Below, one piece after another: positions 1,004-6,167 of a stretch of 64,000 bases of DNA (its first letter is position 1; each line of letters begins with the position of its first letter). Origin of the DNA: Escherichia coli (GTDB lineage: Bacteria > Pseudomonadota > Gammaproteobacteria > Enterobacterales > Enterobacteriaceae). The notes below the pieces were generated by a model. The model saw nothing but the letters and a program-made list of their open reading frames with translations, had not been told where the DNA came from and did not search any database. The stretch lies in NCBI RefSeq assembly GCF_044324875.1, contig NZ_CP172185.1. One strand, 5' to 3'. Made by a program: the position numbers and the translations under genes.

Positions 1004-1040
1004 CTTGGAATTACTTGGAATATTTTCTTGGAATATTTTC
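1004..1040 (+). promoter_or_regulatory. Three tandem direct repeats CTTGGAAT(A/T)TT next to attL; putative integrase arm-type binding sites
   Basis: CTTGGAATTA, CTTGGAATATTTTC, CTTGGAATATTTTC in tandem, overlapping the int stop codon. An inverted copy (TTATTCCAAG) lies near attR at about 47113..47124. Confidence 0.4.
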
Positions 1041-2036
1041 AGGTAACGGGACATCAAGTGTTGGTGAAACTTTAACCTTCCGGTCATAGATTAGCACTTG
1101 CCCTTCGGTTTTGTGACCAGAGAAAAGTTGCTTATCCCGGCTGCTTCCTTCATAGTCTGAAATTCCTTTCGCCTTCAGATCATGAAAGGTGAAGTCGGTT
1201 AAAATACCTGAAACTTTGCCTGCGCGATTTCTTGCTTCTACCCACATTTCGTTAAAGCCTTTGTACATATATCGGTTGCCGTATTGATTGCTGATCACAT
1301 AGGCGGATTTTGGTAACTGTTTTGCTTTTTCGACCGCTGCCTGTAATCGTGGACTCCATGCTTTTATCTGTTTTTTCCCTGTTTTCCCTTGCTGGATAAA
1401 GATCCCGTCGTTTCCAATCTGCTCCCATTTCAGCGATAACACATCGGAAACCCTCGCTGCACACAGATAGGCAATTTCCATTGCGATAAAAACAGGAAGG
1501 GGTGCCACGCTTAATACTGCCTGGTATTCTTTGTCGGTTACATATCGTTCGCGGTTTTTGGCCTTGAATTTACTTACTCCTGCACATGGGTTAGCCTTCA
1601 CGTACCCTCGCTCATACCCCCAACTGTAAACACGGGACATACTGCTTTTTTCATGGTTGGCTTGCGTTTTACTCTGTTCCCCTCTTTTGTCCATGTATCG
1701 ACGGATGTGTTCTGGTTTTATGGAATCCGCTGGTACCTTACCGAATACGGCAAGCAACTTTTTTTGATGTTGCAGATAATCTTTTTGTGTTCTTGGACTA
1801 AGGTCACTGTAACAGGCGCTGGCGAGGAATTTTTCCCACAAGCGACCGAATGTCATTGCACGATCGCGATTATTTACAGTTTCCTCATACTTTTTCCATA
1901 AAGCAGCTAAACCATCCTTGATGGCGGTTAGTGTTACAGATTCTCTGGATGTTGGTTTCCATACATAACTATATTTATTTGGGTATACATTTGGAGGTAA
2001 TTTTTCGTGTTCAGGATTTTTCCTTCGTCTTCCCAT
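1011..2036 (-). CDS. int: Tyrosine integrase, lambda Int family
   Basis: 341 aa ORF. N-terminus MGRRRKNPEHEKLPPNVY resembles lambda Int MGRRRSHERRDLPPNLY. Adjacent to the tRNA attachment site. Confidence 0.9.
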   Translation of the reverse strand: MGRRRKNPEHEKLPPNVYPNKYSYVWKPTSRESVTLTAIKDGLAALWKKYEETVNNRDRAMTFGRLWEKFLASACYSDLSPRTQKDYLQHQKKLLAVFGKVPADSIKPEHIRRYMDKRGEQSKTQANHEKSSMSRVYSWGYERGYVKANPCAGVSKFKAKNRERYVTDKEYQAVLSVAPLPVFIAMEIAYLCAARVSDVLSLKWEQIGNDGIFIQQGKTGKKQIKAWSPRLQAAVEKAKQLPKSAYVISNQYGNRYMYKGFNEMWVEARNRAGKVSGILTDFTFHDLKAKGISDYEGSSRDKQLFSGHKTEGQVLIYDRKVKVSPTLDVPLPENIPRKYSK

Positions 2037-2239
2037 CAGATCGCACCAAAATTCGGCTCTACCTCGCGTGGTGGTAAAGTTTTATTGCAGGTAAATAGAT
2101 CCCGGCTGACAATCGGTTTGCCACTACGATTGGTATAGAACGGAAGCCCGTTTTCCATTAACCATTTTCGCTGGTGGCTTGCATATTTGCAGCCCGTTAA
2201 TATTAGCAATTCATCTTCGGTTAAAAATAAGCTGCTCAT
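2036..2239 (-). CDS. xis: Excisionase-like protein (Xis)
   Basis: 67 aa ORF whose stop overlaps the int start. Small basic protein with a DNA-binding-like motif. Position is canonical for xis. Confidence 0.65.
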   Translation of the reverse strand: MSSLFLTEDELLILTGCKYASHQRKWLMENGLPFYTNRSGKPIVSRDLFTCNKTLPPREVEPNFGAI

Positions 2240-2255
2240 AGCTATATCTCATAAC

Positions 2256-2283
2256 CGCCGCTAACTATATGCGGTTAGCGGCG
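2256..2283. other. 10 bp perfect inverted repeat (CGCCGCTAAC...GTTAGCGGCG) between exonuclease and xis
   Basis: Stem-loop in the 58 bp gap between the two genes; no U-run, so not a simple terminator. Confidence 0.3.
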
Positions 2284-2297
2284 ATTAGGGTTGAACA

Positions 2298-4751
2298 TTA
2301 AAAATCAGCCTGATTCGGGATCAGTTTTTGTATAGTGGCTGTTACGTATTTTGCCTGGTGAAGAGCGTCATCCAGAGCATTATGGCGCACGCCTTCGAAT
2401 GGAATTACGCTTCTGGCATTGAAGTCTGTGATTTTCCCCATCTCAACGATTGTGCGTACATCACGATCGTTGCTGTAATGCCACGGACAGGGGATGTCCA
2501 GACGTTCGTATGAGGTGCGCAAAATTGCGTTATCGAACGTTGCGCCATTACCCCACACCTGAACGAATTTTTCATCAGAGTGTTCATTGACGAATTGCCG
2601 AAAACGCAAAAGGGCATCTTTCATTTTTACCTGGTCAGTTAAAATGGCAGCTCTGGCTTCGCTGGACTGCTTCAGCCACCATTCGATGGTGCCACCATCA
2701 GGAACAGCCCCTGTATTCATTGCGTCAGTCAGGCTGATAACGATATAAAATACCGGCCCGATTTCCCCTGTTTCCGGGTCGAAGAAAACCGCACCAATAA
2801 CTACTATGGGTGCATTGGTGTTGGCTCCCATTGTTTCAAGGTCGACTGACAGGTGATTCCATACTCTGCTGGTGGATGTGATTTCACGATGACCGTTCAT
2901 CTTAATTAAGGAATTTTCTGTTTCGCCAGTTTTATTATCGCTGGCGTGGCCCTGAGCGCCGCCAGTGTTCTCCTTGTGCGGATGCTCAGTGCCTTCCGTT
3001 TCCTCCGGATTTTTTTCCTGAGATTCAGCCTGATTTTCTCCATTGAATGTTTCCTGGTATGTTGCGTCACCCATTACTGAGCCACAATCAGGGCAGTTGC
3101 CGCCGCTGGTCTGACCGCAGGCGGTGCAGACTTTTTCCGGTTCCTGTTGCGCTACTGGCTCAGGTTGTTTCGTTTCTGGCTCGTTTTGTAACGCATTTTG
3201 GCTGTTTTGTTCCGCTTTCTGGTCGTTCTGTTCCGTTTCTTGCTGGTTCTGGTTCACTGAATCGCGAGTCTGGACTCCCTTAACCCATTTCAGATCATTC
3301 GGGTCGCTAATCCCTTCAACGAACTCACCACGCGAGGCCGCCAGTAATTTGTCTGCATCGACAGGATTTTTGGGCGGAATGTTTTTCCTAGCTTCATGGA
3401 GTTCTGCCCGCAGTTTCTGATATTTCGCATCAACAGAATTCACCTGCGGCTGAGCATCCAGCGGCTGCGTGTCCGGATGATGTTCAGTTGTATCCGGTTC
3501 CACTGTTTCAGTCGTTGGCTGTTCATCTGCCATTGCGCCAGACGGTTGCGGTTTTTCTTCATCATCCTGTTTTCCTTCTTCTGTTACACGCTGCGGCATT
3601 GGGGCAGAGGAACGACCGCAGGCAATATCCACGATTTCCGGATCAGGGTTGGCATGATCGGTTTCGGTCAGCACTTTATTCAAGTATTCGGTGACGCGCT
3701 GGGGCATAGCCTCTATACCAACCGGTGCTTCTTTCACGGAGGCAACCACGATGGCGCGGGAATAATCCATCCCGCCTGGCATGTTCAGAAAAGCCTTAAG
3801 GAAGACGGAGAAACAGGGATCATTTTCTGCGATAATTTCGTTAACACGTCTGGTATGTGAAGGATGCATGTTGTAAATATCCACATCCATCGAACGAGCC
3901 AGTTTTCCTGTAGCAACATCGAATGCCATTGACGCATTATCATGCACAAAACCTTCGCCGCGATCGGTAAGAATACCGCCGCCAGCGTTAGCGCCGGATG
4001 GTGTGCGACTGATGCGAGAAACACGATTTCCTTTCATCCACTCTTTTGTAAGCAGACCACGATCAGTGTAGTCAGCGTCCAGGTATGCTTCGATGAAGGA
4101 GGTCATCAGTCCCAGGTCTGAATTTACGGGGGCGGGAAAAACTTTGTCAGTGTCCCGCACCAGTTTGTACAAATCCCGAATCTCCAGCGGTTCGAGTTGC
4201 GCTGCTTTATTTGAGATGGCCAGCGCGGTAACGGCGGGAAGTTTTTCTTCCTGTGCGTTATGTAATGAGCGCAGTTCATCCCGCGAAACGTGCGTTACTG
4301 GTTTTTCGCCGCCGTGTTGCGCCAGCCAGCGAACAGGCAGAATCTGACCTGAAACCGGCAGAAGCATATTCTCCTCAATCTCAGTCATGTCTTCGCCATT
4401 AACATTGGTGTTGTCAGTGCTGGCTGGTTTGTCCTGCGCGGATGGCGGAGGCGCGATAAATATCATTGTGATGCCATCTTCGCCGCCTTTTTCATACCGG
4501 TTACAGAATTCGGTATCAAACACGCCTTCCGGTGGAAGGTCATCAACAACGGGCAAATGGACGCGAACAGGTTTTTTAAAGTCGTCTTCATCATAATCGT
4601 TATCATCCATTGCGGTAATGCAGCGGGAGATGGCAACAGATAATTTTTTTGCTGTAGTCCAGTAAAAACCACCTTTAATCCCAAGGCGTTTTCTGACTTT
4701 GTCATTTTTAGCTTCGCAATATAGCGCAAAAGTTTCTTTATCAGTGCTCAT
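2298..4751 (-). CDS. Large exonuclease with C-terminal DnaQ-like (DEDD) 3'-5' exonuclease domain; the type often annotated exodeoxyribonuclease VIII in E. coli prophages
   Basis: 817 aa ORF. C-terminal region has DLETMG...H...D motifs typical of DEDDh exonucleases. Central acidic/Gln-rich low-complexity region and an internal CxxC...CxxC zinc ribbon ([16 protein letters not shown]). Confidence 0.75.
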
Positions 4752-4870: not shown

Positions 4871-5092
4871 TCACCATGCCACCGCCTTTACAGGTAAACC
4901 ATCACGACCGAGGAAGACTTTAATCATGCGGTCAGTAATGCATGTTTTTGTAGTGAAATCACGGATATAAAGTTTTTGCTTTTCGATATTGTTTGCCGAG
5001 GCGATATATGTCCGGCCTTCGTAAATAACGTAATCGCCGGGAGTGACGCACTGGCGTGGTATTTCATCGGTTCCGAAGTGATGAGCAATCAT
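4871..5092 (-). CDS. Hypothetical small early protein (73 aa)
   Basis: ORF in the leftward early operon between the Rha-like gene and the exonuclease; no recognisable motif. Confidence 0.45.
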
Positions 5093-5137: not shown

Positions 5138-5692
5138 CTATTTAATACTCAGCAACTGCTCGACGGTCATATTTTTAATTGCGCCCCGGTTTATGAGAGT
5201 CCATCCCTGCTTTTCCAGATAAAAACGGAAAGTATCCAGAGTACAGACCAGTGCGCCATCAGGAACTGTTTCGGTGAATTTGATGTAGCCGTGTTCGTCG
5301 AAGCGGATAACCAGGGTGCGGCCATCACCCGGGATTATTTTGTCAGCGGGTGTGGTGTTATTCCGGCGCAGTTCTTCCTCCATGCGGTCGAACTCGGCAA
5401 TGTAGGCTTCCTTGAATGCAGCGGCCTTTTTGCCCGTGAAGCCCATCACAAGGAAAACGAAGCCGTTTTTGGTGATTTGGTACATTGGGAGTTTGCGTCC
5501 TGTTGAGTCGGTGTATTCGCTCGCCTTAAAATTAAGGGCAGTGAACTCAGCGGAGCAGTCCAGTAATTTTATTTTTTGGATAACATTGTCGTGACGCTTG
5601 CCAAAGAATTCCGCGATCGCAACAGACGTAGTGACAGCGCGACCATTTTCAATGGTTACGTCAGGGTGAGAAAGGGTAAGGGTAGTAGCCAT
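5138..5692 (-). CDS. Phage regulatory protein, Rha-like (185 aa from internal start)
   Basis: Track ORF 5138..5989; the ATG at 5692 is preceded by GGAGG with 8 nt spacing. Sequence from MATTLTLSHPDV...AIAEFFGKRHDNVIQKIKLL resembles the Rha family. A terminator-like hairpin sits inside the upstream extension. Confidence 0.65.
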   Translation of the reverse strand: MATTLTLSHPDVTIENGRAVTTSVAIAEFFGKRHDNVIQKIKLLDCSAEFTALNFKASEYTDSTGRKLPMYQITKNGFVFLVMGFTGKKAAAFKEAYIAEFDRMEEELRRNNTTPADKIIPGDGRTLVIRFDEHGYIKFTETVPDGALVCTLDTFRFYLEKQGWTLINRGAIKNMTVEQLLSIK

Positions 5693-5860
5693 AATGGCAG
5701 CCTCCACGTTGAGTATTGATAACTCACCACCGAGGCTTTCCACGACCATAATGGTGGTGAGACGTACAGGGGTGGAAATACCGGTCAACGTAGAACCCGG
5801 CCAGCCTTGCGGCTGCCCTGCACGCCCCACCATAATCTGAATGTGGCTGTGCTTCACGCA

Positions 5861-5884
5861 TAAAAAAACCGCCTGAGCGCGGTT
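5861..5884 (-). terminator. Rho-independent terminator-like hairpin on the minus strand
   Basis: Minus-strand AACCGC-GCTCAG-GCGGTT followed by a T-run; lies between dicF and the Rha-like gene. Confidence 0.5.
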
Positions 5885-6167
5885 GTGCGCTACGTTTGAC
5901 TTCGGGTTTCCACGCCCGGCACCCGGTTTATGAGGTGCAGGTGCACTATAATTCCACCCGTACTGGTTTTCAATAGCTACATTCAACATTTTCTCTTACC
6001 TTTCATCACCGAAGTGAACTTTGTTGATGCGGTGCCAGGTGCCTCCAGGTGACGTTAACCAGTTAACAATTAACGCCGGATACAGAGAATCCACCCATAA
6101 CTCTGTTTTTGGTTTTAACTGTTCCACGTGCGATCAGCCGCATTCACCACATCACAAAATTCACTTT

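Follow-up and report, generated by a model that had tools for sequence, protein, structure and literature searches.

A RecE-like prophage protein of Escherichia coli that ends in a DEDDh exonuclease domain

The window analysed here is a 64,000-nucleotide (nt) stretch of Escherichia coli DNA (NCBI RefSeq assembly GCF_044324875.1, contig NZ_CP172185.1), and our subject is one of its genes, an exonuclease gene that occupies positions 2298..4751 of the minus strand. E. coli AR_0085 has a 99.9% identical copy of the gene, which is annotated as 'exonuclease' (WP_077581043.1) and sits in a Rac-like prophage beside mtfA and tRNA-Ser. An earlier reading made from the letters of the DNA, here called the sequence-only reading, had described an early-operon exonuclease with a C-terminal DEDD domain preceded by a zinc ribbon and a long acidic, Gln-rich linker. 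The gene and the features that we assign to its product, numbered in amino acids (aa), are as follows.

2298..4751, minus strand: complete open reading frame of 817 aa plus stop, RecE N-terminal region joined to a DEDDh exonuclease
3588..4751, minus strand: folded RecE-family N-terminal region (aa 1-388)
4185..4583, minus strand: match to Pfam PF06630, Exonuc_VIII (aa 57-189; E 1e-26, 94.5 bits, cutoff 25)
2859..3587, minus strand: acidic, Q/N-rich linker (aa 389-631), predicted to be disordered from model confidence and composition
3132..3257, minus strand: six degenerate tandem units of 21 nt or 7 aa (aa 499-540), from the in-frame reading
3084..3128, minus strand: putative mini zinc ribbon (aa 542-556), C542-T-A-C545-GQTSGGN-C553-P-D-C556
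2301..2858, minus strand: DEDDh 3'-5' exonuclease domain, Rv2179c/DexA-like (aa 632-817), from Pfam, AlphaFold2 and Foldseek
2835..2843, minus strand: Exo I motif D637-x-E639, present in all 122 aligned sequences and aligned to DexA D7 and E9
2532..2534, minus strand: Exo II aspartate D740, present in 120 of 122 sequences and aligned to DexA D119
2367..2384, minus strand: Exo III motif H790-x4-D795, present in 121 of 122 sequences and matching DexA H186 and D191

The N-terminal part of the protein belongs with RecE. Compared by BLASTP with RecE of E. coli K-12, it showed 70% identity over 559 columns (aa 58-616 paired with RecE 50-591), and the search found no similarity past aa 616, that is, to RecE 592-866. 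The NCBIfam RecE equivalog model NF007259 gave a concordant picture, with aa 1-616 aligned to model positions 1-602 of 877 and a score of 1027.9 bits that lies under the cutoff of 1269, which leaves the protein outside the RecE equivalog. A 2023 review (PMC11611040) puts the RecE nuclease domain at residues 564-866; the N-terminal part is described there as a 'domain of unknown function'. Because the alignment with K-12 RecE ends at the start of that nuclease domain, the protein consists of the N-terminal ~600 residues of RecE and a different nuclease. Taking the explanation as a whole, we therefore consider it highly probable that the protein is a domain-swapped RecE paralogue, in which the PD-(D/E)XK 5'-3' domain has been exchanged for a nuclease of the opposite polarity, and that it is built of three parts, namely the folded RecE-family region (aa 1-388), a tether (aa 389-631) and the DEDDh exonuclease (aa 632-817).

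With RecE of the K-12 Rac prophage the protein shares the PF06630 region, the acidic linker, the heptad repeats and a CxxC-x7-CxxC motif (CNACGQTGGDNCPDC in RecE), and within the early-left operon of their Rac-like prophages the two genes take up the same position. They differ at the C terminus, where RecE has a PD-(D/E)XK (lambda-Exo-like) 5'-3' nuclease domain (about residues 564/606-866) and the window protein has a DEDDh 3'-5' domain instead; RecE also has two fewer heptad units, and recT, ralR and rcbA do not come after the exonuclease in the window. Since the RecE N-terminal region spans aa 1-616, the main fact that the sequence-only reading had missed, the putative ribbon and the linker are inherited RecE features and are not special to the window protein. 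A genuine RecE (exodeoxyribonuclease VIII), that is, a 5'-3' double-stranded DNA exonuclease working with RecT in recombination, is what the names of some homologues imply (P0059, P0078, P0111; H31), and the PF06630 match together with 1028 bits to NF007259 might be taken in the same sense. However, the score remains below the 1269-bit cutoff and the alignment halts at position 602, nothing resembling RecE 592-866 is present, the C terminus is of the DEDDh type, and recT was adjacent in none of six genomic contexts. This evidence refutes a genuine RecE at the sequence level, and we give that identity practically no chance.

The C-terminal domain matches Pfam PF16473 (Rv2179c-like 3'-5' exoribonuclease) over aa 632-805, covering positions 1-175 of the 177-position model with E 3e-66 and 222.9 bits against a cutoff of 27. 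The catalytic positions named in the feature list were set against the residues listed for phage T4 DexA in PMC12153337, where the legend prints the glutamate as E12. For the fold we used a clean alignment of the C-terminal part, from which AlphaFold2 returned a predicted local distance difference test score (pLDDT) above 90 across aa 628-817. The run on the full-length protein had given only 30-58 over the DEDD domain, because non-homologous C termini were mixed in its alignment, and the C-terminal alignment was used in its place. In a Foldseek search the C-terminal model found 113 PDB matches at E ≤ 1e-3; the best was T4 DexA (8kel; E 2.7e-12, template modelling score 0.69-0.73, identity 22-24%), and REXO2/Orn (oligoribonuclease) and RNase T followed it. 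DexA was likewise the sole sequence match of phmmer against the PDB (8kel, E 1e-7). On the grounds of profile and model, aa 632-817 belongs to the DEDDh/PF16473 family; it has a predicted RNase H-like alpha/beta fold and all five catalytic residues, so the early-operon exonuclease with a C-terminal DEDD domain proposed in the sequence-only reading is borne out by profile, catalytic residues and fold.

The domain differs from its relatives in its setting. T4 DexA (PDB 8KEL/8KEN) and its E. coli homologue EcD (HREX) share the DEDDh fold and the catalytic residues with it, but they are standalone proteins of about 200-227 aa, whereas the window domain is fused to about 630 RecE-type residues. Phage exonucleases such as those of mEp460 and mEp235 are also standalone proteins of the PF16473 type, and standalone versions in lambdoid phages are 54-60% identical to the window domain, which here forms the C-terminal end of a protein of 817 aa.

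The combination of domains is common in the species. Among 5426 complete E. coli genomes, 4720 contain some match to the gene and 1017 contain a homologue covering at least 80% of it, while the 90%-identity protein cluster that includes the window protein has 973 member sequences. All of the best 120 clusters carry the pair PF06630 and PF16473, under names such as 'exonuclease' and '3'-5' exoribonuclease'. A fusion artefact or a pseudogene was considered and rejected, since the reading frame is intact and its conservation extends over 1000 genomes and more.

Beyond these close relatives the family is small. An exhaustive HMMER search with aa 1-631 against 1.84 billion representatives returned 231 proteins at E ≤ 1e-3, a number indicating that the N-terminal and linker family is narrow. 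Mapping of modules onto the long 50%-identity representatives showed the N-terminal core (aa 1-120 plus 121-390) joined to a DEDD domain in 14 and to the RecE PD-(D/E)XK domain in about 19, and other representatives had C termini without a Pfam match. One protein of 703 aa (P0123) has PF06630 at aa 2-178, within a region homologous to query aa 58-553, fused to RecT (PF03837, aa 528-678) with no nuclease domain between the two.

We compared the surroundings of the DEDD form in six contexts, made up of the window, two 35%-identical homologues and three further E. coli prophages, which are integrated at different sites (ompW, potC). In every one of them it is the last gene of the early-left operon, with xis-int immediately after it and no annealase alongside. 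In K-12, recT comes after recE and overlaps its end. The constant synteny of the DEDD form, set against recE-recT of K-12, argues that the exchange of nucleases is ancient and stable and goes hand in hand with the loss of the annealase.

The N-terminal region itself appears to be a folded unit. With an alignment of 120 sequences, AlphaFold2 gave a pLDDT near 90 over aa 1-388, and a structure search with this model found no convincing solved relative. Several polar residues of the region are conserved (R231, T250, G258, T262, R264, E278 and R332). Fu et al. 2012, cited in PMC11611040, reported that the RecE N-terminal region boosts linear-linear recombination. The reuse of the region with a different nuclease argues that it has a function independent of the nuclease. 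It is a tentative and rather doubtful suggestion that aa 1-388 would constitute a dedicated delivery or regulatory module, joined in Rac-like prophages by the disordered acidic tether to interchangeable nuclease heads of opposite polarity, either PD-(D/E)XK 5'-3' together with RecT or DEDDh 3'-5' without an annealase; the DEDDh form would then have a distinct role in phage-host conflict or in DNA-end processing, and the cluster of polar residues just named would be the site of the module.

Between the two folded parts, the linker (aa 389-631) has a net charge of -26 and an isoelectric point of 4.5, with 17% Q+N and 14% hydrophobic residues. The AlphaFold2 pLDDT is below 50 over aa 388-648 apart from two weak helices (439-456 and 466-473). 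Within the linker, aa 499-540 reach 40% Q+N and 21% D+E, against 11% and 16% in the protein as a whole. These values agree with the long acidic, Gln-rich, low-complexity stretch upstream of the DEDD domain that had been described from the DNA. The repeat that had been thought to encode it, a region rich in CTGTT(T/C)TG at about 3140..3260, did not hold up in that form, as the exact motif occurs there once, at 3202. A periodicity is nevertheless real, its unit being 21 nt and not the 8-mer: the in-frame reading gives the six degenerate units of 3132..3257, and Tandem Repeats Finder reported 3165..3248 with a period of 21, 4 copies, 74% matches and a score of 84.

Comparison of linker length among homologues, which had been proposed together with the repeat, revealed differences of whole units. 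Aligned to the window gene, K-12 recE has a gap of exactly 42 nt, equal to two units. In the 120 closest clusters, 118 have the full heptad segment (aa 506-521), one lacks 7 residues and one lacks 14; in addition, one or two extra NQ dipeptides are found at aa 499-501 in 10 of these clusters. Among 72 loci for which DNA was at hand, the segment measured 42 aa in 63, 35 aa in four, 28 aa in three, and 49 aa and 44 aa in one each. Homologues thus have 4, 5, 6 or 7 units, the units that are deleted differ between lineages, and one locus (L028) contains a perfect 21-nt tandem duplication (QNSPNAL QNSPNAL). Gain and loss of units of this kind are what replication slippage or unequal exchange would produce, and the sequence comparison supports the slippage conjecture. 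The linker would gain or lose whole 21-nt units by either route, rarely enough for one length, the six-unit form shared by about 90% of homologues, to remain dominant; the locus is not hypervariable.

A faster process could be imagined, in which the repeat is a contingency locus, variable in phase or length, that switches rapidly by slipped-strand mispairing and so tunes the function of the protein. The insertions and deletions always comprise whole units, either of 21 nt or of 6 nt (NQ/ET), with several independent origins, as such a locus would show. However, units that are only about 74% alike are a poor substrate for frequent slippage, the full segment is retained by 118 of 120 representatives and the modal length by 63 of 72 loci, and every variant is in frame, so that nothing is turned on or off. 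Rapid switching is accordingly very improbable in our judgement. One dominant length, the divergence of the units and the in-frame nature of all variants point instead to a slow polymorphism and not to a switch.

Immediately after the repeats lies a four-cysteine motif (aa 542-556), in which four of the ten cysteines of the protein are packed into 15 residues. The sequence-only reading had given it as CxxC-x10-CxxC and called it a zinc ribbon; the motif is present in the linker and is conserved, with a spacer of 7 residues and not of 10. Shuffling of the protein produced a CxxC-x7-CxxC pattern in 32 of 200000 trials. In 122 close sequences C542, C553 and C556 are invariant; at position 545, Cys is found in 110 and Tyr in the other 12. 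More diverged members keep the pattern C-x2-C-G-x3-G-G-x-C-P-D-C while other positions are altered (CDTCGQDGGGKCPDC, CTGCGAVGGGHCPDC, CNVCGETGGGTCPDC). When the segment was scanned alone against Pfam, its matches were exclusively to zinc-ribbon families, namely YhfH, TFIIB Zn ribbon, DZR and Zn_ribbon_3, all of them below threshold; the match to the NCBIfam model ribbon_DG_selen, with E 0.094, likewise fell short. The motif shares with short zinc ribbons (DZR PF12773, Zn_ribbon_3 PF13248, Zn_Ribbon_TF PF08271) the two CxxC(G) knuckles, a short loop and a following hydrophobic residue, and the sub-threshold alignments cover most of these small profiles. It differs from them in its scores (13-20 bits against cutoffs of 27-29), in the want of a confident fold and in the loss of C545 in one lineage. 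The lineage with C545Y is otherwise intact (P0015, P0019, P0020, P0023-P0026, P0028, P0029, P0031, P0038, P0039), and one of its clusters, P0020, is present on 50 contigs.

We read the motif as a real mini zinc ribbon that is under selection and belongs to the short DZR/Zn_ribbon_3 type, with zinc binding inferred from the motif only, and as a probable accessory of the enterobacterial RecE-type linker that would not be needed by the nuclease. Several observations weigh against this reading. No Pfam zinc-ribbon family scored above its curated cutoff (YhfH 20.4 bits against 27, Zn_Ribbon_TF 18 against 29, DZR 18 against 27.3), so the domain search that had been suggested for the ribbon points to zinc-ribbon families below threshold only. 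Over the motif, AlphaFold2 gives a pLDDT of 30-47 and assigns no secondary structure, in a model that is free of metal and with an alignment that is shallow there. The Tyr at position 545 occurs in 12 of 122 close cluster representatives. Finally, when 84 long representatives of the N-terminal family (50% identity) were compared, just 7 had the motif, and several distant DEDD-bearing members are among those that do not have it. On these four grounds one might regard the cysteines as an accident or a relic in a disordered linker, where they would contribute nothing to structure. That view has to set aside the rarity of the pattern among shuffles, the restriction of all sub-threshold matches to zinc-ribbon families, the persistence of the spacing while the residues between and around the cysteines diverge, and the invariance of three of the four cysteines in a linker whose flanks gather substitutions and indels. 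We regard it as unlikely, and keep the putative ribbon as our preferred reading.

The neighbours of the exonuclease gene are listed below.

4871..5092: Kil-like gene, upstream neighbour of the exonuclease
2036..2239: DUF4224 excisionase-like (xis-like) gene of 67 aa, downstream of the exonuclease
1011..2036, minus strand: tyrosine integrase of 341 aa, downstream of the exonuclease and adjoining tRNA-Ser

The gene order in the window, kil - exo - xis - int, is that of the early-left operon of a Rac-like prophage. The integrase is intact in the window at 341 aa and is annotated as frameshifted in AR_0085 (L001 14716..15766). A gene for a Rha-family regulator (5138..5989, minus strand) lies between a truncated dicB remnant (L001 10638..10703) and kil. 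In a related prophage (L005), the Rha-family gene and the exonuclease are separated by a complete dicB and a DUF1482 gene instead, and the comparison of gene content between that prophage and the window indicates that the region just upstream of the exonuclease is mosaic.

The 58-nt gap between the stop of the exonuclease (2298) and the start of the xis-like gene (2239) holds a perfect 10-bp GC-rich hairpin on the minus strand (2256..2283), which consists of CGCCGCTAAC, a loop of 8 nt and GTTAGCGGCG. The wider fold around it has a predicted energy of -23 kcal/mol, with a z-score of -3.9 relative to shuffled sequences. With no U-tract behind it, the hairpin does not qualify as a canonical intrinsic terminator; lying between exo and xis-int, it could act in processing or stabilising the RNA. 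A scan for promoters and terminators around the exonuclease yielded 8 sites against 5.4 expected, no better than shuffles, and found no promoter-like site in the 119-nt gap between kil and exo.

The position in the operon also bears on a function suggested by the fold. A recent study (PMC12153337) reported that EcD, a standalone E. coli homologue of DexA, protects against T4 by cutting DNA that contains 5-hydroxymethylcytosine (5hmC), that DexA-like proteins occur widely in gamma-proteobacteria and have been overlooked there, and that DexA residues W152 and D169 are linked to 5hmC recognition. With T4 DexA as the nearest solved structure, the window protein might by analogy be an HREX-type prophage defence nuclease that, like EcD, degrades the 5hmC DNA of superinfecting T-even phages. 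However, equivalents of the two recognition residues are not clearly conserved: in a pairwise MAFFT alignment W152 stands opposite S760 and D169 opposite F/D, with W757 three residues off, in a loop whose alignment is uncertain at 22-24% identity. A gene inside the early-left operon before xis-int should be repressed in the lysogen, and the gap upstream of it offers no promoter-like site from which it could be expressed separately. PADLOC returned no defence-system match, and EcD acts as a standalone protein, whereas the domain here is attached to the RecE-type residues. Collectively, these points make a defence role of the EcD kind improbable, though it keeps somewhat more credit than a genuine RecE.

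We favour the domain-swapped paralogue, for which the following course of action is proposed. The protein would be made from the pL transcript and would act in lytic development. Its DEDDh enzyme, whose catalytic residues are intact, would digest the 3' ends of nucleic acids, most likely of DNA as in the case of T4 DexA, and the shared N-terminal region would place the nuclease on its substrate or on a partner by way of the flexible tether. This action would be independent of single-strand-annealing recombination, the protein forming no part of a two-component exonuclease/annealase recombinase. Several points count against the proposal. Expression from pL is read from gene order only, and the part of the N-terminal region as a targeting platform is a guess read from the architecture. 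Rv2179c, the founding member of PF16473, has been described as an exoribonuclease, for which reason a preference for DNA or RNA cannot be read from the sequence. Lastly, the observations set out above against the zinc ribbon count here too.

The gene as such is ordinary, common and annotated in RefSeq under an appropriate generic name. It matters little in its own right, as the domain pair is precomputed and a full-length homologue is found in about a fifth of complete E. coli genomes; our literature search found no paper on this RecE-N-terminal plus DEDDh architecture. What the analysis offers to annotation is a matter of hygiene, in that the name 'exodeoxyribonuclease VIII' has been given to proteins that lack the RecE nuclease domain and carry one of opposite polarity. 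A split homologue in E. coli tcmA_3 (L006 4001..6382) illustrates how inconsistently the two halves are named, the 5' pseudogene being called 'RecE family exodeoxyribonuclease' and the 3' open reading frame 'exonuclease'. For recombineering, it is of note that the RecE N-terminal region holds a conserved four-cysteine motif and a tether of repeat-dependent, variable length. The protein also offers a candidate link to the DexA-like (HREX) exonucleases that were recently described in E. coli.

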